Source: an uncultured Chloroflexia bacterium | GTDB lineage: Bacteria > Chloroflexota > Anaerolineae > Anaerolineales > Villigracilaceae | Length of the DNA: 64,000 nucleotides | Direction: 5' to 3' | Assembly: GCA_963781625.1 (NCBI GenBank) | Contig: CAWAGT010000014.1 | Span: 11,022 to 75,021, forward strand | Shown here: piece after piece, positions 3,055-18,279 of the stretch | How the letters are laid out: every line of letters begins with the position of its first letter | Position numbering within the stretch: position 1 is the first letter of the stretch | The notes under the pieces: generated by a model | Told to the model about the DNA's origin: nothing | The model's input: only the letters and a program-made list of their open reading frames with translations | Database searches by the model: none | Position numbers and translations under genes: made by a program

Positions 3055-3318
3055 TTATACCTGCTCGAAGCGCTCCACCGGGACGACAAAAAGCGTGGCC
3101 CGTCTTTCTCCGGAAGGCAGGGGCGTCAATTTGGCACGGATCAATTCCAGGGCGGAATCGACCCGCTCATCCCGCACGCCCAACAACAGAGTCACCACCC
3201 CGCTGCGTAGAAATCCACCCGTCGAAGCCACGCGCGTTACACGGTATTTCTCAGAGGTAAGCGCCTGGGTAATTTCGTCAGCATCGTTGTCCTTGACGAT
3301 GAGAATAATCATTTTCAT
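3055..3318 (-). CDS. darA: PII-like cyclic-di-AMP receptor, DarA/PstA (YaaQ) family, short paralog
   Basis: MKMIILIVKD...YRVTRVASTGGFLRSG...ATLFVVPVERFEQV aligns by eye with B. subtilis YaaQ. AAGGAG RBS before the ATG at 3318. The track ORF start at 3375 is probably too long. Confidence 0.75.
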   Translation of the reverse strand: MKMIILIVKDNDADEITQALTSEKYRVTRVASTGGFLRSGVVTLLLGVRDERVDSALELIRAKLTPLPSGERRATLFVVPVERFEQV

Positions 3319-3352
3319 TGCAATAACTCCTTGGTGCGACAGACCCTCGTGG

Positions 3353-3691
3353 TTATAGCTCTTCGAAGCGTTCAACGGGCAAAGCGAAGACGGTGGCGCC
3401 TCCCACGGTCACGGGAACAGGCGTCGGCATGGGAAGAGGCGAACCTTCCAAAGGCAGAGTCATGTACTCGATGCGCTGACGACAGGATTCTTCCAACGAT
3501 TTGAGAGCCTCTTCTTCCTGCCCCGCACGTATCCCAATCAGCAGTGTGGCATTGTGTCGACCCAGGAACCCACCCGCACTGGCCAGAAGCACAACCGGCA
3601 GGCCACGCTGTTCGAGGGCCTGTGTGGCGATATCCATATCCTGTTCCTGCACAACGGCAAGCATCAACAAGTCGATCGAAATAGTTTCCAT
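3353..3691 (-). CDS. darA: PII-like cyclic-di-AMP receptor, DarA/PstA family, long paralog
   Basis: LLASAGGFLGRHNATLLIGI...VTVGGATVFALPVERFEEL. GGAG RBS before the ATG at 3691. Confidence 0.7.
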   Translation of the reverse strand: METISIDLLMLAVVQEQDMDIATQALEQRGLPVVLLASAGGFLGRHNATLLIGIRAGQEEEALKSLEESCRQRIEYMTLPLEGSPLPMPTPVPVTVGGATVFALPVERFEEL

Positions 3692-3710
3692 ACAATCTCC
3701 GGCAAGATCC

Positions 3711-5003
3711 TTAGAACCATCTATAAAGAATAGTATACAAGATACTGGCAATTGCACAAGTAGCCAGCATCACCGGCAGACCGCGTTGAATCCATAACCT
3801 GGAGGTGATGGGCGTGCGGGTCTTTTCGGAAAGTTTTGCGACAATGATGTTGGTGGTGGAACCAACGATCGTGCCGTTGCCGCCGAAGCCCGCACCAAAT
3901 GCCAGCGCCCACCAGAAGGGCGTAATATCCACGCCTGCCTGACCCAGCCCGCGGATGACCGGAATCAAAGCGATGGTGATCGGGATATTGTCCACAACGG
4001 CCGAGAGTCCGGCGACGATCCAGATGAGCAGCACGCCGAACAGGACCGGCTCGACGTTCGAGGCGCCTTGGAGCAAGCCGACAATTGTTTCCAGTACCCC
4101 GGCCGCACCCAGCCCTCCAACCATGATGAACAGCGAGGTAAAAAAGATGAGCACACTCCATTCGATTTTCTTTAACATTTCATCGAGGTCGGGTCTGACC
4201 CACAGCAGGGCGCAGGCTGACCCACCCAGCGCCACAAAGGCAGGGCTTACGTTCAACAAGTGATGGACAAAGAACAGGAGAATGGTAGCAGCCAGTACGA
4301 TCAGCACGCGCCGCACGGTGACAGGATGATTGAGCGTCTCATCAGGATTGAGTTTCATGATTGCTTTGACACTGCGTGGACGTTTGGAAAGCTCCTTTTT
4401 GAATAGACGGCGCAATATGAATAAGGCGCTTGCCCAGACTATGATGACGATGGGCAGGGCATAGATCAGAAAGTCGATGAAGGAAAAACCGGCCGCAGAG
4501 GCGATCAAGACGTTGGGCGGGTCGCCCACCAGGGTAGCCACGCCGCCTGTATTCGATAGAATAGCTTCCGCAATAAGAAATGGCAGAGGGCTGATGCCCA
4601 GAATTTCACTTATCAGGATGGTGACCGGCGCGATCAATACCACGGCAGTCACGTTGGGCAGGAACATGGAAAGCACCGTCGTGATGCTGCCCAGCATCAT
4701 GAATAAGAGCATTGGTTTTCCCTTCGAGGCGCGCGCGGCCGAAACCGCCAGATACTCGAAGAAGCCCGTCGGCTCGAGCATGGCGACCAGGATCATCATG
4801 CCAAACAATAATCCCAGCGTGTTGAAGTCAATGGCCTTCAGCGCGGCTTCTTCCGAATAAAACCCCAGGATCTTTCCCAGCGCGACCATGAGTGCCGCGC
4901 CGGCAATCGCGACAATGGAACGGTTGATCTTTTCCGAAAAGATCAACACCAGGCTTCCAAAAAAGATAATGCAGGACAGGATGGCACCGATGGCCATGTT
5001 CAA
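3711..5003 (-). CDS. ArsB/NhaD-superfamily (citrate-transporter-like) permease
   Basis: 430-aa polytopic membrane protein with VATLVGDPPNVLIA and GGNGTIVGSTTNI motifs. Its start overlaps the CBS gene stop. Confidence 0.75.
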   Translation of the reverse strand: MNMAIGAILSCIIFFGSLVLIFSEKINRSIVAIAGAALMVALGKILGFYSEEAALKAIDFNTLGLLFGMMILVAMLEPTGFFEYLAVSAARASKGKPMLLFMMLGSITTVLSMFLPNVTAVVLIAPVTILISEILGISPLPFLIAEAILSNTGGVATLVGDPPNVLIASAAGFSFIDFLIYALPIVIIVWASALFILRRLFKKELSKRPRSVKAIMKLNPDETLNHPVTVRRVLIVLAATILLFFVHHLLNVSPAFVALGGSACALLWVRPDLDEMLKKIEWSVLIFFTSLFIMVGGLGAAGVLETIVGLLQGASNVEPVLFGVLLIWIVAGLSAVVDNIPITIALIPVIRGLGQAGVDITPFWWALAFGAGFGGNGTIVGSTTNIIVAKLSEKTRTPITSRLWIQRGLPVMLATCAIASILYTILYRWF

Positions 5004-5458
5004 TCCGCTTTGTGCCAGGAGGCGAGAACGGCAATCCCGATATCCACGCGCGAAGCCAGTCCGGTCAATTTTCCATCTATGGAAACCACCGGGATATCCT
5101 GCAGGTTATGTTTCAACATCAAGGCGTAGGCGCGCAATAAGCCTGCGTCTTCTTCAACGCTGATGGCCGGCTCCATTAAGCTTTCAATCGATTTGTCGAG
5201 CACTTTTGCGGAAGGACGCGTGGTCTCCACTGCGCCGAAATCGTGAACAAAATCCACATCCTCGATAAAGCGTACAAAATCTGGTAATTCCAAGGAGAGC
5301 AGATTCCGTAAGCCAACCACGCCGACGAGCTTGTTATCCTGATCCACTATGGGCAGCAAGCCAATATGATTTTCTACAAATACGGAAGCAGCCTCCCGTA
5401 CTGTAGAGGTGACAGGGATGGAAATAACGTTGTGTTTCATGGACTTGCTGATGTTCAT
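5000..5458 (-). CDS. CBS-pair domain protein
   Basis: Two CBS repeats (VISIPVTSTVREAA...LLPIVDQDNKLVGVV and ...IPVVSIDGKLTGLASRVDI). Confidence 0.8.
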   Translation of the reverse strand: MNISKSMKHNVISIPVTSTVREAASVFVENHIGLLPIVDQDNKLVGVVGLRNLLSLELPDFVRFIEDVDFVHDFGAVETTRPSAKVLDKSIESLMEPAISVEEDAGLLRAYALMLKHNLQDIPVVSIDGKLTGLASRVDIGIAVLASWHKAD

Positions 5459-5480
5459 TGGCTCTCCTCATTTTTTCCGG

Positions 5481-7310
5481 TTAGCTCTGGGATGGCACCT
5501 GAAACCGTTCACGATATTCTGGCAACTCGATCATCGGCGGACGGTCACGCTCGGCGATCTCCTCAATTTCCAATTTGAAGTCTTTCTGTTCATAACGGAT
5601 CAGTTTCATGGTCTTGTTGACATTTTCCAGGAAGCTCTGTTTATGACGGGCCTCGAGCTTATGCATCACGGCTTGAATGATCGCAAAGGACATTTTGCTC
5701 AACGCTTCCAAGGGCTGGTTATGGTGGATACGTTCCTGCAGATCGGCCTGGGCAATGGCACTCAGGTTGAACTTTTCCAGCATATCAATTAACAGGCCAA
5801 TCTCCACACCATAGCCCGAGAAGAAACTTAACTGCTCCAGGGCGGAGCGAAGCCCGCCGTACTCCCCTGAAAGCGGCTGGATCACTCCGGAGAGCTCCGG
5901 GTAGAACAAGTTCAGCAGCGGGCGTGCGGTCAGTTCGGTCACTCGGCCACCGCCGCCTGCCTGAACTTTATCGCCCACCCTCAAGGGTCGTTGATAAAAA
6001 CCCTTGATGAATTGAATATCAGGACGAAGAAGCAGAGGGCCGATCAGCCCATAGACAAAGCGTGGATGGATGTTGACAATATCCGTATCGATCCAGATCA
6101 GAATATCCCCATGTGTGCAGTAGAGGCTTTTCCAGAGCGCCTCCCCTTTGCCTTTGCGTGAACCATAGCGGGGTAAGACATCCTGATGGATATAGACAGG
6201 GACGCCCAAACTTTCGGCGATTTCCCGCGTGCGGTCGCTGGAATTGAAATCAATCAACACGATTTCGTCCAACAGCGGGGCATCCACCACCAGCGCTTGC
6301 TTGATGGTTTTGATGACGTTTCCAACAGTCTTTTCTTCGTTGAGCGCAGGAAATGCCAGGCTGATGGTAAGTCCGCGTTCGCGTTTCAAACTCAGCAGGT
6401 AATCCAGATCTTCGAACTCATTGGCGTGAAAGGTGTTCTCAGCAAACCATTTATCAACCAGCACGGAGATGGCGGTTTGGCCGGCTTCTTCGCTTTCCAG
6501 GCTATATTGCAGTGGCTGCCGGGTTTTGACCACAAGCACCCCCAACTCACTCTGCATCATCATCTGTTCGGCGACCGGACCGATGAAAAGTGTTTCTTCT
6601 GCCAAACGCGCACTGGCGCCCATGACAATTAAATTAAACCGAGGTGACGCCTCTAGAATGACTTTGGCCGGGGTGTCCGTGACAATTTGCTGCTTCTTCA
6701 CTTGGGGGAGGTTTTTCAGCACGTGTTCTATACCGCGAAAAGCCGCATCTTGTTTGGAGAGGGGGTCAGTGGAGACCATATGAAGAGAGGTGACCTCAAT
6801 TTGATGGAAACGCTGCATGGATAAGGCAATCCGCAGCGAGAGCTCAGCGTGAGGGCCGCCGCGCATCGGGATCAAAACGCTTTGTGGGTTGGCCGCCACA
6901 TGTGAATTGACAATCGCAATATCGCAGGGAGGGTAAGTCAATACTTCCGTCGGTGTCGTCTTTAAAATCTCAAATTGACAGGGATACTCCAGGATCAAAA
7001 GGTCAGGCTCTTCTTTTTCTATGAATTTTGTCAACTCATTCCATGGTTGGTGGGCGGCATACACTTCCGCCCAGTGATGGACGCCATTGACATCAGATAG
7101 CCCTTTCAGCGTCCGGCGCACTTCACGAGCGTACAGAGCCGCGGTGCTGAGCAATTCGTCCTGCGGAACATATACCAGGCCCACCAGGGTGACATTTTCA
7201 TCGCCGGCGATGGCACGTGCGGCATTGATCGCAGAGGTCTGTTCACAGCCATATACGATCGGAACCAGCACTTTTTTAAAGAGTTTTTTCTTAAAGGAGA
7301 CTTCATACAA
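5481..7310 (-). CDS. gpgS: fusion protein: N-terminal tandem universal-stress-protein-like domains plus C-terminal glucosyl-3-phosphoglycerate synthase (GT81-type)
   Basis: The C-terminal half carries RKGKGEALWKSL, WIDTDI and GGGRVTELTARPLLNLFYPEL...QPLSGEYG motifs typical of GpgS/MpgS. The N-terminal ~290 aa look like two USP-like alpha/beta modules. Confidence 0.7.
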   Translation of the reverse strand: MYEVSFKKKLFKKVLVPIVYGCEQTSAINAARAIAGDENVTLVGLVYVPQDELLSTAALYAREVRRTLKGLSDVNGVHHWAEVYAAHQPWNELTKFIEKEEPDLLILEYPCQFEILKTTPTEVLTYPPCDIAIVNSHVAANPQSVLIPMRGGPHAELSLRIALSMQRFHQIEVTSLHMVSTDPLSKQDAAFRGIEHVLKNLPQVKKQQIVTDTPAKVILEASPRFNLIVMGASARLAEETLFIGPVAEQMMMQSELGVLVVKTRQPLQYSLESEEAGQTAISVLVDKWFAENTFHANEFEDLDYLLSLKRERGLTISLAFPALNEEKTVGNVIKTIKQALVVDAPLLDEIVLIDFNSSDRTREIAESLGVPVYIHQDVLPRYGSRKGKGEALWKSLYCTHGDILIWIDTDIVNIHPRFVYGLIGPLLLRPDIQFIKGFYQRPLRVGDKVQAGGGGRVTELTARPLLNLFYPELSGVIQPLSGEYGGLRSALEQLSFFSGYGVEIGLLIDMLEKFNLSAIAQADLQERIHHNQPLEALSKMSFAIIQAVMHKLEARHKQSFLENVNKTMKLIRYEQKDFKLEIEEIAERDRPPMIELPEYRERFQVPSQS

Positions 7311-7324
7311 CCTCCTGATGATTC

Positions 7325-8539
7325 CTACATGAGAAGTGGTGCAATATTTTGCTGGTAAATACGCTCCCAGGTATATTGTCCGCGCACCAGTGCGCGCATT
7401 TGAAAGACGGAACTTGAAGCAAGTTGCTCTGCAATGACCATTGCCAGGTCATCGGGGTTGGCATCCGGCGAAAAAAAAGTGGCGTGTGCATCCCCCAGGC
7501 TTCGTAATGGCGGGATATCTGCACAGAAAATCGGCAGGTTCGCGAACCCGGCCTCCAAAACGGGAATGCCAAATCCCTCTTCACGGCTGGGCAGAATGAG
7601 TGCATCGGCCAGATGATAGAAATCCGAGATGACTTCATCAGGGACATAGTCCTTGGTCAACTCGGCCAGAAAGCAGATCGCATTCTCCACGCCCAGTTCT
7701 TTACGTAAAGCGATTAACTTCTCGAAGTATTTAACATTGGCAGGGTTGTGCGGCCCAAGCGGACCGGTGACGACCAATTTCGCCTGTGGAAAATCTCGCT
7801 TCAAACTCGCACAAACCCGTAGGGCCAGTTCAATATTTTTTCTTGTGGTAATGCGCACAGGTAGCAACAGCAACGGAGAGGCGTGCAGCAGATCCAGAGG
7901 TTGCACATAGTTGCGTGTTTGTTTTTCGAGTTTATGAAACCGCGCCACGTCCACGCCGTTGGGTACCACGGTAACGGCCTCTTCATCGATTTGAAACAGT
8001 TCGGCCAGTTCATGCCGACGCATCTCAGAGATCGTCACCTGTTTTACACCTCTCCAGGCCTGCCTGAGCAAGTCCCATGGATAGCCATCATATAGCTCAT
8101 CCCGATAACGCGGCGTTGTCCATGCCAGATCATGATGCCATAAAATGACGCGCAGATGATCATAACTTGTCAGGCTATGGACGGCAGCGGTCAGCGCAAG
8201 GTTCTTGTTCAGCGAACAGGCGTTATGAACAATAAGCGTATCTACATCACTCAAAATTCTACTGAGGTCCACAGTCAGTGACTCGACCAGCCCTGCGAAC
8301 TCAGGCGGGATGCGCCCGGCATCCAGGTCAGCCTTGATGGCCAGTACCTCCGGATGACGAGAGTCGGCTGTGGGAAGATGAACAAAAGGAATACGTGGAT
8401 CAACTTGCTCTCCTCGTCCTGCCACGATCCGGACCTGATGACCGGCATCAGCCATCAGGCGGGCATGATGCCCCAGGACGCTTTCAACGCCTCCGACCAC
8501 CGGCGGGGCCGAGTAATGCAGAAGAGCCACCTCGCTCAT
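7325..8539 (-). CDS. GT4-family (GT-B) glycosyltransferase
   Basis: N-terminal PPVVGGVESVL and C-terminal LILPSREEGFGIPVLEA (E-x7-E-like) motifs. Ends with TAG. Confidence 0.8.
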   Translation of the reverse strand: MSEVALLHYSAPPVVGGVESVLGHHARLMADAGHQVRIVAGRGEQVDPRIPFVHLPTADSRHPEVLAIKADLDAGRIPPEFAGLVESLTVDLSRILSDVDTLIVHNACSLNKNLALTAAVHSLTSYDHLRVILWHHDLAWTTPRYRDELYDGYPWDLLRQAWRGVKQVTISEMRRHELAELFQIDEEAVTVVPNGVDVARFHKLEKQTRNYVQPLDLLHASPLLLLPVRITTRKNIELALRVCASLKRDFPQAKLVVTGPLGPHNPANVKYFEKLIALRKELGVENAICFLAELTKDYVPDEVISDFYHLADALILPSREEGFGIPVLEAGFANLPIFCADIPPLRSLGDAHATFFSPDANPDDLAMVIAEQLASSSVFQMRALVRGQYTWERIYQQNIAPLLM

Positions 8540-10308
8540 TGTGATTTTTCTTGAGCAGCCTGGATGGCCAGATCGATGAACACAGCCGAGGACCAGCCAA
8601 ACATGGAAGCGGCTTTGGGTGGATTCTCACCGGTCATCGGGTCATAATATTCATAAATGTCATCGCGGCAGCAGATCAAATCCAGGGTGCGCTTGCGTAA
8701 TTCACGCGCCAGGTCGGCATAGCCCGAACGCTGCAATCCTTCGATCAACAGATAGTTCACGTTGACCCACGTTGGACCGCGCCACATTTCGTGCCGATCA
8801 TATTTGGGATCGTTCATGGCAACTGTGGGAATGGGATAACGTGACCAAAATTCATGTTCGTCCGTCAGATGCGCGACCAGACGGTCGGAAATTTCCGGCG
8901 GCATCTGGCCTGTGATCAACGGGAACAGGTTGAAAGGAGTCAGAACGTTCACGCGCGACCCATTCCTGGTGGCCCAAAAGAGGCCGCTCTCTGCATCCCA
9001 GACCAGATCGATCATCCGTTGCACCATGGTCGCGGCGCGTCCACGCCACATCTCCGCCTCCTCTTCCTTACCGATCACCCCGGCGATTTTTGCCAGCGCT
9101 TCCTGTTGAAGATATAGGTAGGTATTCAAGTCGGGCGACTGGACCGGCATGCCGTCGTCCCATAAGGGGCTGTCGTCCAAACCCGATGAATACGGATGCT
9201 GATATTCACAAAGGCTGTTGCCATCCGTATCGTTGTTATCGAACCACCAGTTATTCCAGCGCACGATCGGTTCATAGATTTCATCCAGGAATTCCCGGTC
9301 ACCATTCTGTTCATAGAGTTTATAGGCGGCCCAGGCGATCAGCGGTGGTTTCGTTACGTCTGCATCGACGGGATAGTCCAGGTGGGTCACCGCACCTTCA
9401 TCATGGATGGCATCCGGGATCATGCCGTCTTCGCGTTGATGATCCAAAACGATGCGAATTTGATCCTGCGCCAGATGCATTTCCACGTGACGATAAGCAA
9501 GAGCATGGAAGAAGGCATCCCATTGCCAGACGCCCACATAATGGATCATGGAGGGTGTCATCGCTTCGCGCGTGGTATAGAAGCGGGTGGAGATCAGGCC
9601 AGCACGCATGATCCACCAGGCGTAATAATATTGAGAGCGATATTCCTCCTGCACCTGTGGCGCGCTGGCAAACCAATCGTGCCAACGTTGAGCCGCGCCA
9701 TCCAGAGTCTCAGTGACATTCGGGATATAACGGTTGAAGCCCAGGCGCGGCGTAATATTCAGGAGCAGTGCCTTGCCGCCTTCGGAAGCATCGAGGTGCA
9801 GTTGAACAGATTGATTATCAGCATCCAGGGCGTTGGTGAGGTGAGAGACGATGTGCGCGTTCGTGGTGTAAGCCACGTTGCGGCGAATATCACCGGTCAA
9901 GCGCAATACGCCGCCGCGGCGGTCGGTTTGGATCTTGTCGAGGTTGGCGTTGAATTTAATGCCACACTGGGCGGAGGGTAAGGTGATCATTAGTGTTTCT
10001 ATATCCACGTAGGCCACAGTAAAAGTTCCGATGCGAGTCTCGCAGTCGATACGATGCGGATAAGTCGTTAAGTTGAGTTCAAGAGGATCCCCATCACCAT
10101 CGATGAAGACCCATTCGTCGATCAAAGGCTGGCGCTGGCGATAGGCTGCGAGTTGACCTTCACGTTTAAACCAGCGCTCTGCCAGGCGGATGGTGAAATG
10201 CTGATTGACATAAAAAATCAATAAGCGCGAGCCACGGTCGCTGAAGGGAATCTGGCGTAGATTGATGCGATCTTTTAAGAGATTCAAATATTCTGAAGTT
10301 ACATTCAT
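8536..10308 (-). CDS. GH63-like (alpha/alpha)6 glycoside hydrolase; candidate glucosyl/mannosylglycerate hydrolase
   Basis: SSGLDDSPLWD and WRGPTWVNVNYLLIEGL motifs. The ATG at 10308 has an AAGGAA RBS and avoids overlap with the upstream gene. Confidence 0.65.
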   Translation of the reverse strand: MNVTSEYLNLLKDRINLRQIPFSDRGSRLLIFYVNQHFTIRLAERWFKREGQLAAYRQRQPLIDEWVFIDGDGDPLELNLTTYPHRIDCETRIGTFTVAYVDIETLMITLPSAQCGIKFNANLDKIQTDRRGGVLRLTGDIRRNVAYTTNAHIVSHLTNALDADNQSVQLHLDASEGGKALLLNITPRLGFNRYIPNVTETLDGAAQRWHDWFASAPQVQEEYRSQYYYAWWIMRAGLISTRFYTTREAMTPSMIHYVGVWQWDAFFHALAYRHVEMHLAQDQIRIVLDHQREDGMIPDAIHDEGAVTHLDYPVDADVTKPPLIAWAAYKLYEQNGDREFLDEIYEPIVRWNNWWFDNNDTDGNSLCEYQHPYSSGLDDSPLWDDGMPVQSPDLNTYLYLQQEALAKIAGVIGKEEEAEMWRGRAATMVQRMIDLVWDAESGLFWATRNGSRVNVLTPFNLFPLITGQMPPEISDRLVAHLTDEHEFWSRYPIPTVAMNDPKYDRHEMWRGPTWVNVNYLLIEGLQRSGYADLARELRKRTLDLICCRDDIYEYYDPMTGENPPKAASMFGWSSAVFIDLAIQAAQEKSQ

Positions 10309-10310
10309 AT

Positions 10311-12032
10311 TTATTCCTTGCTCCTTAACCATAAAGTTTGATATGGCTTCAAAACCAAAATTCCGTCCGCGAAAGTGTGTATTAGATCGCCGGTGATCAA
10401 GTCGGTTAATTGGCTTGAAGATAAACCCAAGATATCTTTTGGATCAACCCTTACATGCTGAAGCTGATTTGAAATGTTATGCAGACACAGCACTCGCTGG
10501 CTCTCATCCGTGGAGAGTCGCAGCAGGGCGAATACCGTTTCTCCGCAATCGAGAACTTGTTGTTCGCCATGAGGATGAAACGCCGCGCAGGTGCGACGCG
10601 CTCTCAGACACTGAGCATAACGATTGAAAACATGATACCGCAACGAAGATTTGTCGGTTAGTTCATTTTCGAACGCGGCCGCCGCGAACTTTTGACGATT
10701 GATTGTACGGTTTCGCCCGGTTAAGTCAACACCTGCGTGCCAGCCGCGTGAACCGAACAGGCTATGAAAATAAATCCCGGGAACGCCGATCAGCGCCAGC
10801 ATGATGGCTTGCGAGGTGACAAAGCGATCCACTTGAATATCAGGCGCTTCTTTTGAGGCCGGGTCGGAGAGCGCATCAAAGTAATTGATATTGAGTTCAT
10901 AAGGCTTTTGTCCGCCGCTGGCTTCCTGTTTATAAGATACCAGGCCGCCGTGCTGAGTCACGCGTTCGATCAAGGCCTCAATTTCAGCCTCGGATAGAAT
11001 GCCGCGAGCGGGGTTGATGCCGATCCCATCATGCGATGCCAGAAAGTTGAAAAATGTGGTCTGGCTGGATGGTAACTTAAGCCCGGCTGCCCACTTCGAT
11101 AGGATGCGGCTGTTCTCTGTATAAAAAGTGTGCAGGACGAGAGGCGGCAAAGCAAAATTATAGACCATTTGCGCCTCATCCCTGCCATTCCCAAAATAAG
11201 AGATGTTATCGACATGGGGAACGTTTGTTTCGGTGATGAGCATGACATGCGGTGCGACCTCATCCAGCACGGCGCGGAACAAACGAATCACCCGATGAGT
11301 TTGGGGTAAATGAATACAGGAAGTGCTGATTTCTTTCCAAAGATAAGCAATGGCATCCAGCCGGATGAAATGGGCACCCTGCGCTGCGTAAAGCAGCAGT
11401 GTATCGATGATTTCCAAAAGTACATCCGGATCCTGATAATTGAGATCGACCTGATCTGTGCTGAAGGTGGTCCATACCTGCTTGAGACCTGATGGAGTAT
11501 GGAATTCGGTCAGGAGTGGCAGGGCGCGCGGTCGCACAACTTGAGAGAGATCTGGGTCTCTGTTCACCACAATAAAATAATCTCGATAATGCGGATCATC
11601 TTGTAAAAAGGCCTGGAACCAGGGGTGCTGTACGGAGGCATGATTGATGACCGCATCGAACATCAAACGGAAATGACGCTCCAGGGTCGAGATGTCATCC
11701 CAGTTTCCCAGAGCAGGATCGACCTGGCGATAATCCTTGACTGAGAAGCCATCATCCGAGGTCCAGGGATAAAACGGCAAGATATGAATTCCTCTTACTA
11801 CGCCATCCAGGTATCGATTGCAAAAATCCCCCAATGTTTCCAACGGCTTCTCGTTGGGTAACTGAAGTTGATCACCGTACGTAATCAGGATGGAATCCTG
11901 CTCTGTGACCCCGCCTGCGCGCTGAGGGATTCGCCTGGCACATTCTGTCATGATCGCTTGCAGACGATCCAACAATGCGGGGGCTTGCTCTGCTCCGTAA
12001 AGAAAGGTGAGGTGAGAGAGGAGGTCGGTCAT
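10311..12032 (-). CDS. GH13_18 sucrose-phosphorylase-family enzyme; candidate glucosylglycerate phosphorylase
   Basis: DAVINHAS, HFIRLDAIAYLWKE, ITETNVPH and NFLASHDGIG motifs (GH13 catalytic regions). Confidence 0.8.
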   Translation of the reverse strand: MTDLLSHLTFLYGAEQAPALLDRLQAIMTECARRIPQRAGGVTEQDSILITYGDQLQLPNEKPLETLGDFCNRYLDGVVRGIHILPFYPWTSDDGFSVKDYRQVDPALGNWDDISTLERHFRLMFDAVINHASVQHPWFQAFLQDDPHYRDYFIVVNRDPDLSQVVRPRALPLLTEFHTPSGLKQVWTTFSTDQVDLNYQDPDVLLEIIDTLLLYAAQGAHFIRLDAIAYLWKEISTSCIHLPQTHRVIRLFRAVLDEVAPHVMLITETNVPHVDNISYFGNGRDEAQMVYNFALPPLVLHTFYTENSRILSKWAAGLKLPSSQTTFFNFLASHDGIGINPARGILSEAEIEALIERVTQHGGLVSYKQEASGGQKPYELNINYFDALSDPASKEAPDIQVDRFVTSQAIMLALIGVPGIYFHSLFGSRGWHAGVDLTGRNRTINRQKFAAAAFENELTDKSSLRYHVFNRYAQCLRARRTCAAFHPHGEQQVLDCGETVFALLRLSTDESQRVLCLHNISNQLQHVRVDPKDILGLSSSQLTDLITGDLIHTFADGILVLKPYQTLWLRSKE

Positions 12033-12601
12033 TTTGATTTCCTGCCAGAGAAATTAATCAGCCGCGGCGATGAGCGTACAGGAAAGATGCCCTGCTGCAC
12101 GGAGCGCAGTTCCTCCACTGTGAAGAAGGCTTTCGGATGTGTCTCCTGAATAATATTTATCACCTCCGGAAGTTCCTTCCTCAGCACAACTGTGTAAACG
12201 ACTTGCACAGGACCGTTGGCTCCATGTCCATCCACATGGGTAACACCGTATCCATCCGAGTGTAAACGTGCAATAAGAGATTTTCCATCTTTGGAAAGAA
12301 AAGCGCGTACCACCAACGTGCCAATCGCCAATTTTTCCTCGATTAGCATGCCGGCGAAGTTGCCTACCGCAAAGCCGGCCGCGTAGGCCAGATAGGCCAC
12401 CAGGTTTTGCGCACCGCGTACGATCTGGGATACGATGGTGATCCAGATAAACACTTCCACAAAACCCAGCAGCGGCGCGAGATATTTTCTGCCGCGCGAA
12501 AGAAAGATGATGCGTATCGTTCCCAGCGTCACGTCGCAGATACGCGCCGCGAATACGATCAGTGGCAGGATCACCCAGGTAAACCAGTCAAAGGTCTGCA
12601 T
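12029..12601 (-). CDS. UPF0316/DUF2179 membrane protein
   Basis: MQTFDW...ARICDVTLGTIRIIFLSRG N-terminal TM region and a C-terminal DUF2179-like domain. ATG at 12601. Confidence 0.6.
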   Translation of the reverse strand: MQTFDWFTWVILPLIVFAARICDVTLGTIRIIFLSRGRKYLAPLLGFVEVFIWITIVSQIVRGAQNLVAYLAYAAGFAVGNFAGMLIEEKLAIGTLVVRAFLSKDGKSLIARLHSDGYGVTHVDGHGANGPVQVVYTVVLRKELPEVINIIQETHPKAFFTVEELRSVQQGIFPVRSSPRLINFSGRKSK

Positions 12602-12611
12602 GTGTATCGGC

Positions 12612-14106
12612 CTATAAGCTGCGGCTGTTGCCCATATTGGGCAGGATCCATTCATCGTTGTAGAAATCGCGCATGATCCTGTAGTAATACAATGCTTCCT
12701 TGTTCTGCAATTCGTAATCCCAATCCTGCTTGAGGCGCTGGTGTTCCGAAGAAAATTCCCGATCGGAAATTTCCGTCTCAGCGCGTTGGGTGATCAGGTC
12801 CGACGACCCTGCGCCTTTTGAAAATTTTTCCTTTGGGCGATTGATGATTTCCTCCGGCAGGTTGTCCACGAAAGACTGACGCAGCAGCGCTTTGGGTGTC
12901 CTGGAGTGGTGCATTTTCCAGTCGGCGGGAATGCCCATCGCAAGCGAAACAGATTGAACGTCCAGGAAGGGGACGCGGGCTTCCAATCCAAAGGCCATGG
13001 ACATACGGTCGGCACGCTGCAAATTCGTGTTGTGCAGGGCGTTCGTGATGTAGATCATTTCATCCTGCAGATCATCGGGCGTTTCATATCGAGATAAATA
13101 ATCGTAGCCCGCAAAAACTTCATCCGCGCCCTCGCCGGTGAGAATGACCCGCACATGCTCCGAGGCAAGTTTTGCCAGGAAATAATTGGGGATGGCACTG
13201 CGCACCAACGCGGGATCGAATGATTCGAGATGATACAAAACATCCGGCAGCGCCGCGACCATATCCTGCGAGTTGTAAACGTATTCGTGATGGATCGTGT
13301 CGAGATAAGCCGACATCTGATGCGCGGCCATCAGATCGGAACTCCCTTCCACACCGACCGCGAAAGAGTGGAGTTGTTCCGTCTCTTCGCGCGCCAGAGC
13401 GGTAACGATGCTGCTATCCAACCCACCGCTCAGACTCACGCCCACCGGCACATCGGCCAGCAGACGTTTATAGACCGCCTCGCGCAAGGTGGATTGGATG
13501 GCTGGTAGTGCCTGCTCTTCTGTTCCATCGAACGGTTGAATCGTTTCTTCGAGTTCGATAGTACTTGTGCCAGCCAAGCTGCGAGTGATACCAATGCCCG
13601 GCGGGAAATTCTTTTATATTTTTGACCAGCCCAACCAGTGCCTTGATCTCCGATGCAAAGAAGAAAAGTTTTTTGTCCCTGCTTCTGCCATAATATAAGG
13701 GTTTGATCCCGATTGGATCACGTGCCAGAAATATTTCTCCGTTGTGCTGAATGGCAAAGGCGAACATGCCATCCAGTAGTTCCACACATTCGGGGCCGAA
13801 TTTTCGATACAAATGGATCAAGACCTCTGTATCTGAGTGCGTTTTGGCATGCAGCGTGGGAAGATGTTTCCGCTTCAATTCGCGATAGTTGTAGATCTCA
13901 CCATTGAAAACAATGGATGTATCCTGATACTGCATGGGCTGACTTCCGCCCTCGATGTCCAGAATGGCGAGACGGGTATGTCCCAGCGTGCCATGGGGAA
14001 TATCCATCACGCCCTGACCATTCGGTCCGCGATGCGCAATATTTTTCACCATTTTATTAACGATTTGTATTGCTGGTTCCTGAAAAACTCCAGCGATTCC
14101 ACACAT
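12612..14106 (-). pseudogene. asnB: asparagine synthase (glutamine-hydrolysing), split by a frameshift near 13550-13575
   Basis: The N-terminal part MCGIAG...IKEFPAGHWYHSQLGWHKYY lies in one frame. The C-terminal part ...DVPVGVSLSGGLDSS...TGEGADEVFAGY lies in another. AGGAG RBS before the ATG at 14106. Confidence 0.85.
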
Positions 14107-14131
14107 GAGGTTTCTCCTTTGCTGTTCTGGT

Positions 14132-15499
14132 TTATGGGGATGGAGTGGTCGTGATGAGTGCCAGATAGGTCTCCGGCATCCATCCAACGCGACCTTCACC
14201 ATCCATGACTTCGACCCAAATGATCCCATCCACTTCCTGCCGGCCATAGAGCAGGGTGAGTACCTGCTTCTGGCGGACGATTCCGATCTCAGGCCCGCCC
14301 GGTGACTGATACAAGCGAAGCGGCGGGAGATTGGTCACTGCAACCTGCACCAAACCCGGGGTGGGAGTCGATGTCGGTGTTGAAGTAGAGGTGGCCGTTG
14401 CAGCTGGAATGAACGTGGGTGTGAGACTGGGCCCCGGTGTGTTTGACGGAGTCATCGTCGATGTCGGTGTGAACGTGGGCGGAATGAGAGGATCAAATTG
14501 TTCCGCAAAGACCTGATTCACTTTGAGGGAGACCGGTATTTGCAGGTCTGTCGCAATCTCTTTTTGCAAGGCGGTCACCTGTTCATAACGCAAGGGCGTA
14601 TTGGTACGCACGGTAATGATCATGTTCAACCCAGTCTGGGTGCGCTCCACATTGAGAGGGTCCACCAATTGTGCACCGTTCAAACGCGCAACCTCTGCTT
14701 TGACCACTTCGTTGATCTTGCGATTCTCGCTGGCTTCGTTGAAGAACTTGACGCTATACCACGAGAGTGGAATAAGCAAGGTAAACGTCAGGCTGGCAGC
14801 AAAGACCAACGATCTGGGAATGATCCGGCCTTCCGTTCGTCGCCTGGGCCCGAAGCCCTGTAGGAAAAATACAAGCGCGGCGGCAAAGGCAATCGTGATC
14901 GCATTTGTGATAAATAAAAGTGAGGCCCCTCCGGCGACATCCCAACGCTCCAGAGCAACACCTATGCCAATTGTACATAACGGTGGCATCAATGCGGTTG
15001 CAATGGCCACGCCTGGCAGGGCCGCGGAGAGGTTGGGGCGTGTCATCGCATACGCCGCGGCAAGTCCGCCTGCCAGCGCAATCACCAAATCGATCGGCGA
15101 AGGACGCGTGCGTGCCAGCACCTCCTGTGGAAGTTCCTGCAAAACAACGAACGGCAGGTCACGGTTGATGACCGTCATGAGAGCAGACAGCAGAACCGCC
15201 AGGGCCGCGCCACGCAACAAGGCTGAAAGCGCGGATCTTGCCAGCTTGGTATCGCCCGTGATGGAACCCAGTCCCAGTCCAATAATCGGCGACATCAGCG
15301 GGGCCACGAGCATCGCGCCGATGATGACGGCCGGCGAATTAGTGATCAGACCCATCGTGGCGATGCTGCACGACAACACAACGAGTACGAAAAAGTCGAT
15401 GCCTGGCGAGGCGCTGTCGGTTACTTCATCAATGATCTCCTTGCGTTCGTGACTTGACGGGGGATGAACGTAATGGTGAAACCGCTGCAGGATATTCAT
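14132..15499 (-). CDS. DUF389 membrane protein with a C-terminal Pro/Thr linker and SH3b-like domain
   Basis: VVLSCSIATMGLITNSPAVIIGAMLVAPLMSPI is typical of DUF389. The tail is PTFTPTSTMTPS...TPTSTPTPG followed by an SH3-like segment ...IIWVEVMDGEGRVGWMPETYL. Confidence 0.7.
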   Translation of the reverse strand: MNILQRFHHYVHPPSSHERKEIIDEVTDSASPGIDFFVLVVLSCSIATMGLITNSPAVIIGAMLVAPLMSPIIGLGLGSITGDTKLARSALSALLRGAALAVLLSALMTVINRDLPFVVLQELPQEVLARTRPSPIDLVIALAGGLAAAYAMTRPNLSAALPGVAIATALMPPLCTIGIGVALERWDVAGGASLLFITNAITIAFAAALVFFLQGFGPRRRTEGRIIPRSLVFAASLTFTLLIPLSWYSVKFFNEASENRKINEVVKAEVARLNGAQLVDPLNVERTQTGLNMIITVRTNTPLRYEQVTALQKEIATDLQIPVSLKVNQVFAEQFDPLIPPTFTPTSTMTPSNTPGPSLTPTFIPAATATSTSTPTSTPTPGLVQVAVTNLPPLRLYQSPGGPEIGIVRQKQVLTLLYGRQEVDGIIWVEVMDGEGRVGWMPETYLALITTTPSP

Positions 15500-15502
15500 A
15501 TA

Positions 15503-16603
15503 TCAATCGATGGCTCCTTCTTGAACAAAGCGCGTCAGTTCGCTGACACTCCACTGATCGAGCCCGAGTTTTTCCACAGTGCGGCCGCGTCGCCAGTAAT
15601 CGGTGCGATGAATAATGCTGGCGATGCGGATCATGCTTTCCATGCCACTCACAGAGACACCGTAACGCATGCCCAGGGAGGCGATTGGCACCAGGCTCAT
15701 CGGCACATCTTCGAAAAGGTAACGATGATAGAGCGTCGAAGGTGCTTTGATCCCATAATAGCCCGGTTGGTTGTGAATGGCATCATGCAGGCTTCCGCCG
15801 TCTGTGTTGTAGGCAAGTTTAAGCCATTCCAGCGCAGTCCGGGCGCGCAATCCCAGGGAAGAGGCGACCGTTACACGTTCACGGTCGAGCACCTCCAGCA
15901 TGCGCGCCACTGACGGAGTGACGCCGTCGATATAAAACTGATAATCTCCGTGAGTGGCCTCGATCCAGCCCATGTTCAATAAAGTCAGCGCCGGGTGGAA
16001 GATCGCTCCCATGTTATTTAATCCGGTGTTGAGTACGTCCACACCATCGATGAATTGAGGGTAGGCCTCACAAATGGCTTCCAGGACCCTGCGTGTCCGC
16101 GTAGCCGGGAGCGCGGCCAGCGGCACCGCTTCCTTGATACGAAAGATGCGCGCCTGTGCCGGCCCATCGGAGCGGGAGGCATAGATAAAGGTTTCCGCCT
16201 CCGCCACAGTGACATCCGCAGTGCAGCCATTTTCGCGTATCACTTTGGCAAATTCCAGCGCTCCACAAGTGCGCCCTGGATGCAGGATCACAATCTGTCC
16301 ATTTTTTAGATGCGGCGACATGGACTTTGCCATATCTGCGTGCGCAGAGGATGGCAAGACCACCATGATCACTTCTGCTTTATGGACGGCCTCTCCCATA
16401 TCCGATGTGACCAGGGCAAGTTCACCGAATCCATGCGGACCACTCTCAGCGCTGTCCAGTTCGATCCCACCCCGTTTTTTGATAATTTCCACATGTTCGG
16501 CCGTACGATTGAATAACGTGACTGAAAACCCCATCAGAGCCAGGTGTGCAGCCATGGCCTTACCGCCATGACCCGCACCGATCACTGTAAAAAATTTTGT
16601 CAT
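15503..16603 (-). CDS. NAD(P)-dependent octopine/nopaline (opine) dehydrogenase-family protein
   Basis: Rossmann motif VIGAGHGGKAMAAHL and a C-terminal FHPALTLLN region typical of the family. The ATG overlaps the stop of the upstream gene (ATGA). Confidence 0.7.
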   Translation of the reverse strand: MTKFFTVIGAGHGGKAMAAHLALMGFSVTLFNRTAEHVEIIKKRGGIELDSAESGPHGFGELALVTSDMGEAVHKAEVIMVVLPSSAHADMAKSMSPHLKNGQIVILHPGRTCGALEFAKVIRENGCTADVTVAEAETFIYASRSDGPAQARIFRIKEAVPLAALPATRTRRVLEAICEAYPQFIDGVDVLNTGLNNMGAIFHPALTLLNMGWIEATHGDYQFYIDGVTPSVARMLEVLDRERVTVASSLGLRARTALEWLKLAYNTDGGSLHDAIHNQPGYYGIKAPSTLYHRYLFEDVPMSLVPIASLGMRYGVSVSGMESMIRIASIIHRTDYWRRGRTVEKLGLDQWSVSELTRFVQEGAID

Positions 16604-18279
16604 TGGGATCTCCTTGGTTGGATGAGTTTTGACAAGCGTTTTTTCTCTGTGATTCTCTCTCCTTTGGCATCAACTGTCACACATGTGCCATTGATAATCC
16701 TGGTGTGTATTTCCCCACATCCGAATTTATTGTTTCGTAATTGCGGTGCGTCCATCAGACCAGAGGTCACCGCGCGTGTCAGAGTGGTCGCGTCGATGAA
16801 TGGGTCATCAGCTTCGGGTCCCGCGAGAGCCGAGATGGCTTCCAGTAAAAGAGTTGCCTCTTTCACCAGTTCCTTCCTCCGTTTGGTGATGGCTGGATCG
16901 GCCCTCATATCCGGCGCACCCCGTACTGCGTTCTCGATTGCGCGCCGTACGATTTTGCTGGCTTCGATTACATCCTCCGCGGTCGCGGCGTGATGCGCCT
17001 CGGTGTGACCGACAATGTGATAGATATGCGGCTTGAGCGCCATTTGAAGATACGTGGCCGCGGCCAGATGTCCGCGCGCTGCGTCGGGGTCAAGCGGATG
17101 GGAAAGTAAACCGATGCGAGTTTGTTTCCAGATGTTAAACGGCCCTTCACCCCCGGCCCCTCTCCCAGAACGGGCGAGGGGAGAAATCATATCCATCACC
17201 GCCAGCATCTTGGCAAGGTCCATTGCATCCGATAAACCGGGCGGGCTATTGAACATGAGTTGGGCGATGTAATCCTTCACACCGAAGGCACGCGCGTTAT
17301 ATGCCGAAAGATAGGCTGACACAACGAACACCACATCGGGCGCATCGCGCATCCCCCAGTGATGCGGCTCGTTCAATTCCACGGGAATATGATGCTCGCC
17401 ATACCATTTCATCACTTTTTGATGTTCACGGATCGAACCTTCCAGATCCCAGGGCCCGCGTCCATCCATTTGATTGAACCAAAACAGGGGAATCGCGCAC
17501 CAGGCGATATTGATCGTATCCACATACATCCCGGCCAGTCTTATAAAATCATCGGTGCCGGAATAGGTGCGCAACATTGGATAATTGCCGCGGCGGCTGG
17601 CTCGATATAAAGCGCGATAATCATCCGCCGAACGGACAGGTACACCGCCTGCGCCTTTGCGCCGCGGGTCCTGTCGTTCAGGATGAAAGAAATTTTCCTG
17701 GGCGTCCTGATCGATGCCCAGCGAGATCACATCCAATGCCTGCGCCTCGGCGATCTTTTCGATGCCTGCAATGGTGTCTTCCATGGTTGGCAGACCGAAG
17801 TGATGACGCAAGATCGGATAGGGCGATTTCCATTGGATGCGCTCAATGGTCGATTGAGGAAAATTCGCTTCGCCCAACGCCTCAGCCTGTTTCCCCTTTA
17901 AATAAGCGAGGATCGCCTCCGCCGGTTCGCTCCCGTCGAAGGCACGCTCGAAGAAACCGATCTTGCGAGCGCGTTCCACCACAGGCGGAGTCCCGCCAAA
18001 AGCAAAGCGGACACCCTGCTCATGCAAGTCTGAGGCAGCTTCGGCAAACTGACCTAATAAACGTTCACCCGTTTCCGGTGTGAGGCGATACGAAACACCG
18101 ACCATCTCCGCACCTTCGCGTTGTGCGGCGGAGATCATTTCCTCCACCGATACCGCGGGGCCAAGAAACACCGTACGCCAGCCTGCAGATTCGGCCAACC
18201 TCAAGAAGTTGGTTACCCCTGCCACGTGAACACATTCGCCTAACGCACCAGCCACGACCGTTTTCGTTTTTTGCTTCAA
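16600..18279 (-). CDS. B12-binding-like domain fused to an uncharacterised ~400-aa C-terminal domain
   Basis: The N-terminal ~130 aa resemble a cobalamin-binding Rossmann domain (VVAGALGECVHVAGV...MVGVSYRL...FAFGGTP). The C-terminal part was not recognised. Confidence 0.55.
   Translation of the reverse strand: MKQKTKTVVAGALGECVHVAGVTNFLRLAESAGWRTVFLGPAVSVEEMISAAQREGAEMVGVSYRLTPETGERLLGQFAEAASDLHEQGVRFAFGGTPPVVERARKIGFFERAFDGSEPAEAILAYLKGKQAEALGEANFPQSTIERIQWKSPYPILRHHFGLPTMEDTIAGIEKIAEAQALDVISLGIDQDAQENFFHPERQDPRRKGAGGVPVRSADDYRALYRASRRGNYPMLRTYSGTDDFIRLAGMYVDTINIAWCAIPLFWFNQMDGRGPWDLEGSIREHQKVMKWYGEHHIPVELNEPHHWGMRDAPDVVFVVSAYLSAYNARAFGVKDYIAQLMFNSPPGLSDAMDLAKMLAVMDMISPLARSGRGAGGEGPFNIWKQTRIGLLSHPLDPDAARGHLAAATYLQMALKPHIYHIVGHTEAHHAATAEDVIEASKIVRRAIENAVRGAPDMRADPAITKRRKELVKEATLLLEAISALAGPEADDPFIDATTLTRAVTSGLMDAPQLRNNKFGCGEIHTRIINGTCVTVDAKGERITEKKRLSKLIQPRRSQ

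Follow-up and report, generated by a model that had tools for sequence, protein, structure and literature searches.

Two small genes for PstA/DarA-type PII-like proteins lie in tandem in the window, the 64-kb stretch of Chloroflexota DNA analyzed here, next to genes for a permease, a CBS protein and a fusion of a USP region to glucosyl-3-phosphoglycerate synthase (GpgS). The locus raises the question of whether the two proteins connect c-di-AMP to the functions of their neighbors and, if so, through which of them. A sequence-only reading had proposed a c-di-AMP-responsive module for osmolyte uptake and synthesis. The five co-directional, closely spaced genes that it described are present at 3055-7310 on the minus strand. 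In the order 5' to 3', they encode the USP-GpgS fusion (5481..7310), the CBS pair (5000..5458), the CitMHS/ArsB-type permease (3711..5003), the long protein DarL (3353..3691) and the short protein DarS (3055..3318). With corrected gene starts, the successive gaps are 22, -4, 19 and 34 nt, the negative value being the overlap of the permease start with the CBS stop. The string is as tight as had been claimed, but it is not self-contained: these genes make up the 3' end of an approximately 18-kb, tightly packed co-directional string that extends upstream to about position 20.9 kb of the window.

The mechanical ORF lengths of 134 and 106 amino acids were rejected as overlong because both ORFs contain an internal ATG preceded by a ribosome-binding site (RBS). 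DarL starts at the ATG at 3691 behind the RBS GGAG, giving 112 amino acids, and DarS starts at the ATG at 3318 behind AAGGAG, giving 87. These lengths match those of the homologues, which number more than 2000 each (111 to 112 amino acids for DarL and 87 for DarS). Both small ORFs were found to match the c-di-AMP receptor family, as had been proposed. With 81.7 bits for DarS and 73.8 bits for DarL, both exceed the gathering score of 27 of PF06153 (CdAMP_rec, Pfam), and the DarL match covers profile positions 3 to 108 of 109. Full-length alignments link DarL to the PDB entries 4rww (E=9e-16) and 4RLE, and DarS aligns to 4rle (E=4.9e-16). The AF2 model of DarS (pLDDT 86.3) has the beta-alpha-beta-beta-alpha-beta fold of PII-like ferredoxin type; its top 16 Foldseek matches are all PstA/DarA proteins (TM 0.73 to 0.82, the best at 0.79 to 0.82), followed by classical PII proteins. 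On the DarA equivalog model NF058593 (NCBIfam), the two proteins reach 78.9 and 81.2 bits, far under the cutoff of 140. By profile score, DarL and DarS are thus classed as members of the PF06153 family, not as DarA equivalogs.

The two proteins share the fold and family of the solved PstA/DarA proteins (4RLE, 4D3H, 4WK1 and 4RWW), including a short T'-loop with the GGFL motif. DarL also has the full B'-loop (approximately residues 68 to 92), G94-G95-A96 and the D12/R67 pair, whereas DarS lacks the B'-loop of about 22 amino acids and R67 and carries K/R-R in place of the GG of GGA. PstA/DarA is encoded by one gene, in Firmicutes within the tmk (thymidylate kinase) operon (PMC4475381), while here two obligatorily paired paralogs lie beside antiporter and compatible-solute genes in a Chloroflexota host.

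Of 80 species-level loci from Anaerolineales, 79 have DarL as the gene immediately preceding DarS, which is more than chance would give; the median distance between the two is 18 nt. Both the family match and conservation in relatives, on which the sequence-only reading had staked itself, were therefore found, although what is conserved is narrower than it had supposed. It is the DarL-DarS pair that stays constant; the five-gene set does not. For 71 loci, the co-directional gene directly upstream was recorded; it encodes CitMHS at 18, a CPA2-associated 119-amino-acid protein at 16, a 790-amino-acid MGH-like glycoside hydrolase (GH) at 14, CPA1 at 7, NhaA at 3 and USP-GpgS at 2. The permease and CBS module of the window thus adjoins the pair in only 18 of these 71 loci. 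Since the upstream genes are replaced between loci, no single neighbor can be named as the DarA target. That the neighboring transporter comes from at least five unrelated families also argues against one specific protein-protein contact. Most of the replacements are Na+/H+-type cation antiporters, an indication of ion homeostasis no less than of osmolyte uptake. Where 4 kb or more of upstream sequence was available (56 loci), 52 loci have an antiporter or permease gene (CitMHS+CBS, CPA2, CPA1, NhaA or Na/Ca exchanger) and/or a glucosylglycerate-type gene within 8 kb upstream. The proposed link to compatible-solute genes and transporters is thus supported.

Related proteins in other Chloroflexota join the two forms in a single chain, the long domain first and the short domain second. 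Such fusions make up about 40 of the top 150 representative matches and at least 311 database proteins, and their domain order is the gene order of the split pair. Their gene order differs from that of the Anaerolineales loci, and in 6 of 9 contexts the fusion gene is next to GT4-USP-GpgS, GH13/GH63, a trehalose-type synthase or the AsnB/B12/octopine-DH set. The association of receptor and osmolyte genes thus recurs independently. This result bears on the possibility that the neighborhood reflects synteny only, the pair sitting beside a hot spot of gene turnover, flanked by ruvA and panC, that gathers salt-stress genes, with the real target elsewhere, such as a transcription factor. The backbone ruvC-ruvA ... 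pair-u407-ROK-panC-ssb is indeed kept while the island content varies, and a Fic gene (three loci) or ruvA (two loci) can lie directly upstream of the pair. Because one order supplied all 80 loci, the neighborhood association is in part due to shared ancestry. GlnR, claimed in Staphylococcus aureus (PMC13484208), is the one PstA target reported. We nevertheless consider synteny alone quite unlikely to be the explanation, given that the upstream genes are co-directional with the pair across gaps of mostly 1 to 30 nt, that 52 of 56 loci have antiporter or glucosylglycerate-type genes upstream and that the fusions again adjoin such genes.

The c-di-AMP pocket of PstA sits between subunits, and each side gives different residues (PMC4316997). 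Contact residues and mutant effects were taken from the SaPstA and LmPstA structures (PMC4316997, PMC4475381), in which changing GGFL to AAAA and the T28A mutation abolish c-di-AMP binding and N41A weakens it. In the window, DarS keeps R26, T28, G47, GGFL, F99 and Q108 and has V at the N41 position. DarL keeps GGFL, N41, GGA, T97 and F99, with P, V and E at R26, T28 and Q108. T28 and N41 therefore never occur in one chain of the window pair (T28/V41 in DarS and V28/N41 in DarL). Largely the same division runs through the relatives. R26 and T28 are each present in 83/83 DarS sequences and Q108 in 82/83; of the T'-loop motif, G34 is kept in 83/83, G35 in 81/83, F36 in 78/83 and L37 in 70/83. N41 and G94-G95 are found in 0/83. 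In the DarL set, GGFL, GGA and F99 are each kept in 82/82 sequences and N41 in 81/82, and the counts for R26, T28 and Q108 are 1, 24 and 18 of 82. Judged from these residues, DarS corresponds to the "monomer A" half of the PstA pocket and DarL to the "monomer B" half. These complementary half-pockets are a new point, missed in the sequence-only reading.

Because the pocket halves of DarL and DarS are complementary, a heteromer with one composite site is predicted, and the pattern suggests that the two proteins may work only as a mixed complex. A precedent exists in methanogens, where the adjacent PII paralog genes NifI1 and NifI2 lie inside the operon of the regulated process and encode a 2:1 heterotrimer with asymmetric ligand sites, one subunit having a longer effector loop (PMC12439982). 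DarL and DarS resemble this system in being adjacent, co-occurring PII-family paralogs. They differ in that NifI1/NifI2 is a classical PII complex that binds ATP/ADP and 2-oxoglutarate and targets the nitrogenase NifDK, whereas the DarL/DarS heteromer is one that we infer from sequence.

The two proteins might instead form independent homotrimers, co-transcribed for the same stress response, with DarS a minimal, lower-affinity c-di-AMP receptor and DarL a ligand-blind or apo-type partner binder. All solved PstA/DarA proteins are homotrimeric (PMC4316997, PMC4475381). Stand-alone short forms are widespread and keep N41 in 39 of 73 representative clusters, so the short form can probably work alone. 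DarL keeps T28 and Q108 in about 18 of 82 species and there could bind ligand as a homotrimer, by analogy with LmPstA, which has G26. Across the whole family, no motifs are better conserved than GGFL, N41 and GGA, and DarL could retain them for structural reasons. In the fusions, both domains keep R26, T28 and N41, so that complementary halves are a property of the split pair of Anaerolineales only. A 1:1 fusion is ill matched to a three-subunit ring, and two tethered, stacked homotrimers match it at least as well; an AF2 model of one fusion gave a pTM of 0.72, read here as a score only. Independent homotrimers leave unexplained, however, why the invariant residues are the exact complementary halves of the pocket while the other halves drift and why DarL and DarS are adjacent in 79 of 80 loci, and we regard this arrangement as rather unlikely.

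It is also conceivable that the pair no longer senses c-di-AMP and binds another adenine nucleotide (ATP, ADP, AMP or cAMP), like SbtB. Both proteins fall far under the DarA equivalog cutoff (79 and 81 versus 140 bits), and each has lost a residue whose mutation abolishes (T28, in DarL) or weakens (N41, in DarS) c-di-AMP binding. A search of the 64-kb window and of the other loci retrieved found no diadenylate cyclase (DAC) gene, so c-di-AMP production by this organism is an assumption. Against such a change of ligand, both proteins have the PstA-specific GGFL T'-loop, together they retain the full pocket, and PDB alignments show no Walker-A-type B-loop, as found in ATP-binding PII proteins, in either one. 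Another ligand is therefore very unlikely in our estimation.

We accordingly return to the mixed complex, with the pair read as the last two genes of an osmoadaptation (salt/osmotic-stress) string, and propose the following course of events. DarL and DarS would assemble as a mixed PII-type trimer. Its sole canonical c-di-AMP pocket would form where the "monomer A" face of DarS (R26, T28, G47 and Q108) meets the "monomer B" face of DarL (the T'-loop GGFL, N41, G94-G95-A96, T97 and F99). Ligand in this single site would reorder the B'-loop of DarL, the presumed partner-binding element, and the c-di-AMP level would thereby be coupled to the co-transcribed Na+/H+-type antiporters and permeases and to glucosylglycerate synthesis and turnover. 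That a DarL/DarS mixed complex couples c-di-AMP to the ion and compatible-solute functions of the operon in this general way has, in our judgment, an even chance of being correct. The stricter version, an obligate heterotrimer with a single composite pocket in which the DarL B'-loop directly gates the Na+/H+-type antiporters and/or USP-GpgS, is tentative and somewhat unlikely. If true, the obligate heterotrimer would bring the number of known heteromeric PII-type complexes to two and would be the first such complex among receptors for cyclic dinucleotides, and gating by the B'-loop would give the long-enigmatic PstA/DarA family a concrete physical target class.

Regulation of this kind has parallels. 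In GlnK-AmtB and SbtB-SbtA, a PII or PII-like regulator is encoded beside the transporter that it plugs. The present locus likewise has a small PII-type gene directly downstream of, and co-transcribed with, a membrane transporter gene; the transporter is fixed in those systems, whereas here it comes from at least five families, none of them universal. SbtB, a PII-like transporter regulator, is reported also to bind c-di-AMP (PMC8654305). In Firmicutes, CpaA and KhtTU place cation/proton antiport under c-di-AMP control in ion and osmotic homeostasis (PMC10636490). c-di-AMP acts there on RCK_C domains or on the KhtT subunit, while the candidate receptor here is a PII-like pair; no RCK domain was detected among the genes of the 64-kb window.

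The sequence-only reading had also considered the CBS protein and the USP domain as c-di-AMP modules, which leads to a scheme with c-di-AMP bound by the CBS protein and the USP domains as well as by the DarA paralogs, all of which would together control an osmolyte uptake permease and GpgS. CBS and USP domains do bind c-di-AMP in some Firmicute proteins (PMC4686210, PMC10636490), and one tight string of genes encodes the DarA, CBS and USP domains alike. Pfam profiles found two CBS domains (PF00571, two stretches, 74.6 bits) in the 152-amino-acid stand-alone CBS protein and one Usp domain (37.4 bits, residues 144 to 262) in the 609-amino-acid fusion, the first 140 or so residues of which have no assignment. 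The best PDB match of the USP region is the tandem-USP protein Rv2623; this match is weak (E=0.007), so the GpgS part and one USP domain of the "USP-USP-GpgS" description are borne out and the second USP is only plausible. The c-di-AMP motif of the KdpD USP domain is SXS-X20-FTAXY (PMC4686210). A regex search found no such motif in the fusion protein, nor does that protein contain G-x2-G-x9-G(S/T). The CBS protein scores 24.9 bits on the CbpB/DarB model NF041630, against a cutoff of 125, and its PDB matches at E<=1e-4 are generic CBS proteins, with no DarB/CbpB structure among them. These data provide no evidence for either protein as an additional c-di-AMP receptor, and most relatives keep the pair without the permease and CBS genes. 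We consider the multireceptor scheme highly improbable.

In relatives, the CBS gene directly precedes the CitMHS permease gene without exception, and this constant adjacency makes the CBS protein a likely regulatory subunit of that permease. The permease (430 amino acids) matches PF03600 over the full profile (274.7 bits, positions 1 to 336 of 336), with weaker matches to ArsB (52 bits) and DASS models and a score of 231 bits, under the cutoff, on a MamN-like model (NCBIfam). In the PDB, it matches VcINDY/NadC over part of its length (63 bits) and ArsB over its full length (54 bits). Its nearest solved relatives by these alignments are VcINDY/DASS and ArsB, and it is an IT-superfamily permease (CitMHS/ArsB/NhaD/DASS type).

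GpgS, together with the GT4, GH63/MGH-like and GH13 genes next to it, resembles the glucosylglycerate/mannosylglucosylglycerate pathway (GpgS, GpgP, MggA and glucosylglycerate hydrolase); these genes and those farther upstream are all on the minus strand. Residues 285 to 596 of the fusion match the GpgS equivalog NF010496 at 365.6 bits, above the cutoff of 262, and the protein also matches Glycos_transf_2 (Pfam); unlike in the known pathway, GpgS here has a USP region at its N terminus. The string yielded no GpgP phosphatase. The GT4 glycosyltransferase (7325..8539; Glycos_transf_1 and Glyco_transf_4), whose gene adjoins USP-GpgS in relatives, usually as a pair, possibly performs a second glycosylation step of glucosylglycerate. 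It matches the mannosylglucosylglycerate synthase model weakly (68 bits against a cutoff of 640) and by this score is not an MggA/MggS orthologue. The GH63/mannosylglycerate-hydrolase (MGH)-like protein (8536..10332; PF22422, 267 bits) scores 96.7 bits, under the cutoff, on the glucosylglycerate hydrolase model. The GH13 sucrose-phosphorylase-like enzyme (10311..12032), with an alpha-amylase domain and 198 bits on TIGR03852 (under the cutoff of 334), is a candidate glucoside phosphorylase. Upstream of it, the string (12029..20987) encodes a DUF5698-DUF2179 membrane protein, a frameshifted AsnB-like protein, DUF389, octopine-DH-like and B12-binding proteins and a frameshifted 790-amino-acid MGH-like GH. 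These genes also lie upstream of DarL-DarS in relatives and beside a fused receptor in locus L095.

All five open reading frames claimed for positions 3055-7310 in the sequence-only reading were present in the ORF map of the window, on the minus strand. As had been proposed, both small frames belong to the c-di-AMP receptor family PF06153 (CdAMP_rec), with scores of 73.8 and 81.7 bits against a gathering score of 27; the window contains no other PF06153 gene. Their mechanically called frames were overlong, and the starts were reset by upstream ribosome-binding sites. The long form, DarL (3353-3691, minus strand), starts at ATG 3691 behind GGAG and encodes 112 amino acids (aa), and the short form, DarS (3055-3318, minus strand), starts at ATG 3318 behind AAGGAG and encodes 87 aa; each length is matched exactly by more than 2,000 database homologues. 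Sequence identity is 34% between DarL and DarS and 36 to 38% between either of them and Bacillus subtilis DarA. The AF2 model of DarS had a pLDDT of 86.3, and its top Foldseek matches were PstA/DarA proteins with a TM score of about 0.8. These data establish family membership and fold. The two proteins are nevertheless not DarA equivalogs, and neither DarL alone nor DarS alone carries T28 together with N41 (PstA/DarA numbering). The other three of the five genes encode a USP-GpgS protein (5481-7310) with Glycos_transf_2 and one Usp domain, which matched NF010496 (glucosyl-3-phosphoglycerate synthase) at 365.6 bits (cutoff, 262); a CBS pair protein (5000-5458) with CBS domain matches; and a permease (3711-5003) with a full-length CitMHS match of 274.7 bits and weaker ArsB, DASS, and NhaB matches. 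With the corrected starts, the gaps along the five genes are 22, -4, 19, and 34 nt.

A DarS alignment was scanned against one genome per GTDB species, yielding 80 loci with DarS identities of 60 to 92%, nearly all titled Anaerolineales, Anaerolinea, or Chloroflexota. In tblastn-anchored gene maps, DarL lay directly upstream of DarS at 79 of the 80 loci (median gap, 18 nt), counts that are not independent events because all 80 paired loci belong to one order. The one exception has its start at the edge of a contig. The conserved backbone order is ruvC-ruvA, a variable island, DarL-DarS, a 407-aa protein whose signal sequence is of the lipoprotein type, ROK, panC, and ssb. Among the 71 loci with enough upstream sequence, the co-directional gene adjoining DarL was a CitMHS permease, always preceded by a CBS gene (18 loci), a 119-aa gene following a CPA2 Na_H_Exchanger (16 loci), a 790-aa glycoside hydrolase resembling mannosylglycerate hydrolase (MGH; 14 loci), a 517-aa CPA1-type Na_H_Exchanger (7 loci), NhaA or Fic (3 loci each), or USP-GpgS or ruvA (2 loci each); a Na/Ca exchanger was frequently found one gene beyond. 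This variety indicates that the DarL-DarS pair is the constant element and that several arrangements exist, among them the five-gene order of the window. Upstream sequence extended for 4 kb or more at 56 loci; at 52 of these an antiporter or permease gene, a glucosylglycerate-type gene, or both lay within 8 kb upstream, and both types occurred together at 20 of those 52. Two contigs with the Anaerolineales-type DarL-DarS-panC-ssb order (L025 and L064) carry Bacteroidota and Ignavibacteriaceae MAG names, probably through contamination during binning and not through transfer.

Of all the results, the complementary split of pocket residues between the two proteins is the most interesting and the most readily tested. 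In Staphylococcus aureus PstA, c-di-AMP is bound at each monomer-monomer interface, where monomer A contributes R26 (by a cation-pi contact), T28, the backbone of G47, and Q108, and monomer B contributes the T'-loop (F36 stacking and the F36/L37 amides), N41, and F99; LmPstA adds T97 and the G94 amide. The T28A and GGFL-to-AAAA mutations abolish binding, N41A strongly weakens it, and R26 is dispensable (PMC4316997; PMC4475381). We aligned 83 DarS and 82 DarL sequences to DarA. On the monomer A side, R26 is present in 83/83 DarS and 1/82 DarL sequences (P in 60, S in 14), T28 in 83/83 and 24/82 (V in 49), G47 in 83/83 and 80/82, and Q108 in 82/83 and 18/82 (E in 61). On the monomer B side, N41 is present in 0/83 DarS (V in 73) and 81/82 DarL sequences, the G94-G95 pair of the GGA motif in 0/83 (K/R-R instead) and 82/82, T97 in 74/83 and 81/82, and F99 in 83/83 and 82/82. 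GGFL is mostly retained in DarS and found in 82/82 DarL sequences, and the B'-loop and R67 are absent from DarS and present in DarL. The window proteins follow the majority pattern (R-T...V...Q in DarS, P-V...N...E in DarL). The pocket half that has been lost from one paralog is thus kept in the other, apparently under purifying selection. On this residue pattern, the canonical site would be rebuilt only where DarS as monomer A meets DarL as monomer B, a junction that would occur exactly once in a mixed trimer of either composition, L2S or LS2. DarL retains T28 and Q108 in a clade of about 18 species and could bind ligand by itself there.

Natural fusions of the two forms were found in an exhaustive phmmer search of 1.84 billion representatives with DarS, which returned 1,608 matches. 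About 40 of the best 150 of these were long-plus-short fusions of 200 to 260 aa, composed of a long PstA-like domain, a linker of 25 to 45 aa, and a short domain, in the same order as the genes; the search also gave 73 stand-alone short forms. A larger database contained at least 311 such fusions, and those with a named source were all from Chloroflexota or Anaerolineales. Both domains of one natural fusion were confidently modeled by AF2 (pLDDT, 79.7; pTM, 0.72). Nine fusion gene contexts were read. Two had the order ATP-grasp, fusion, GT4, and a 590-aa USP-GT2; one had ATP-grasp, fusion, and GH13, with GH63 further along; one had GH63, GT4, and a trehalose-type synthase/phosphatase after the fusion and a CLC channel and cation ATPase upstream; one had fusion, Usp, AsnB, B12-binding, and octopine-DH genes, the set found upstream in the window; and four were unrelated or unclear. 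The fusions support the view that the long and short forms act together, and they support a compatible-solute link that is independent of Anaerolineales synteny. R26, T28, and N41 are retained in both fused domains. Mixed trimers accommodate a 1:1 chain no better than a pair of tethered homotrimers would, and the fusions are therefore no proof of a heterotrimer. Genes for a response regulator (OmpR type), a histidine kinase (HAMP-HisKA), and a D-Ala-D-Ala-ligase-like ATP-grasp protein recur ahead of the fusions (L087, L089, L091, L096, and L097), and L089 carries three fused paralogs on one contig.

For the separate proteins, we infer that DarL and DarS assemble into a mixed trimer that has a single c-di-AMP site, and binding is predicted to require both together. 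Ligand binding would then order the DarL B'-loop, the loop proposed to bind effectors in PstA (PMC4316997), and the ordered loop would control the operon-encoded transporters, USP-GpgS, or both. The sequence-only reading had proposed a c-di-AMP-responsive osmolyte module. Genomic association supports that general idea, but not the CBS and USP proteins as additional receptors or the permease as the target. The USP region does not contain the KdpD SXS-X20-FTAXY motif or the ATP motif G-x2-G-x9-G(S/T), and among solved structures it is closest to that of the tandem-USP protein Rv2623 (E=0.007). The CBS protein is generic, scoring 24.9 bits with the CbpB model (cutoff, 125), and no DarB/CbpB was among its PDB matches. 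Assignment of the permease as the DarA target is unsupported, the adjacent transporter being drawn from at least five families; the target is possibly a feature that these transporters share, one of several, or a nonadjacent protein. Among proteins of solved structure, the permease is closest to the Na+/dicarboxylate symporter VcINDY, which it matches in part, and to ArsB, which it matches over the full length; both NhaD-like Na+/H+ antiport and organic-anion uptake (glycerate, glucosylglycerate) are possible. A tblastn search with an approximate diadenylate cyclase domain query found none in the window or 97 loci, a result that applies to those sequences and has no bearing on the remainder of the genome. 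In Firmicutes, c-di-AMP governs potassium and osmolyte homeostasis (PMC10636490), and glucosylglycerate, an anionic solute without nitrogen, accumulates when nitrogen is limiting (PMC5381378). Pairing the two is physiologically coherent, which is an argument rather than evidence.

The location of a PII-type gene 3' of a transporter gene has analogues in GlnK-AmtB and SbtB-SbtA. Campeotto et al. remarked on three PstA paralogs in two Chloroflexi (PMC4316997), without later analysis. Our literature searches (Chloroflexi PstA, PII-like proteins with antiporters, USP-GpgS fusions) found no earlier description of paired or fused PstA forms or of their association with antiporters or GpgS. DarL-DarS is a real, conserved, and previously undescribed PstA/DarA variant. 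What this family acts on has been an open question for some ten years: DarA function is given as unknown in a 2023 review (PMC10636490), and GlnR, in a July 2026 preprint, is the first claimed protein target (PMC13484208). The split and fused forms within Na+/H+ antiport and glucosylglycerate-type operons of Chloroflexota provide a short list of candidate partners. If the proposed mechanism is true, heteromeric PII signaling would reach beyond NifI1/NifI2, c-di-AMP would be tied to sodium and anionic-solute homeostasis outside Firmicutes, and the pair would illustrate how evolution can reduce a symmetric sensor with three sites to a sensor with one.

Tight same-strand packing continues beyond the five genes to about 20.9 kb, which places DarL-DarS at the 3' end of a long string with many glucosylglycerate-type compatible-solute genes. 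Upstream of USP-GpgS, all on the minus strand, are genes for GT4, a GH63/mannosylglycerate-hydrolase-like enzyme, and a GH13 sucrose-phosphorylase-like enzyme; further upstream are a DUF5698-DUF2179 membrane protein, an AsnB-like gene, DUF389, and an octopine-DH-like gene; and a B12-binding protein and the 790-aa MGH-like hydrolase lie at the far end. Promoter and terminator consensus scans of 2.9 to 21.5 kb gave counts at the shuffled expectation and therefore say nothing about operon limits. Rfam at gathering thresholds gave zero matches in the whole window, and so no ydaO-type c-di-AMP riboswitch. On the opposite strand, panC converges directly on DarS (3055 to 2978), and the 407-aa signal-peptide protein and ROK genes that follow DarS in most relatives are missing from the window. 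The AsnB-like gene (GATase_7 plus Asn_synthase; 12612-14247, minus strand) is in two frames whose query ranges overlap (1-188 and 165-497), and in relatives the protein is one 497-aa chain; the frameshift, near 13.58 kb, means either that the gene is a pseudogene or that the assembly contains an indel. The string has another frameshift, which splits the MGH-like hydrolase into two frames (18508-20987, minus strand; query 1-378 and 334-788), which adjoins the pair upstream in 14 relatives. The B12-binding, octopine-DH-like, and AsnB-like amidotransferase set, with DUF5698-DUF2179 and DUF389 (12029-18279, minus strand; L001), also occurs beside the pair in Anaerolineales and beside a fused receptor (L095:7757-11823), and it may be an uncharacterized solute-synthesis pathway. 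An NhaA-type Na+/H+ antiporter gene (46132-47469, minus strand), located away from the pair, encodes a protein that shares 43% identity with the NhaA found ahead of DarL-DarS in relatives.

Further small proteins accompany the pair in relatives. A protein of 117 to 121 aa (L003:9283-9642 and 17 other loci) is always encoded between the CPA2 Na+/H+ exchanger and DarL. A Pfam search of the 119-aa form gave no match; hhalign against DarS, DarL, and Escherichia coli GlnB gave only a weak GlnB match (31 columns, E=0.0023), located at the N terminus in the beta1-alpha1-beta2/T-loop region. This protein may represent a third PII-like member, specific to the antiporter. Two species have a third DarA-like paralog (L016:5490-5822 and L018:5473-5799) that is 44 to 47% identical to DarL and carries A26, T28, N41, GGA, and E108; the gene order there is third paralog-CBS-permease-DarL-DarS.
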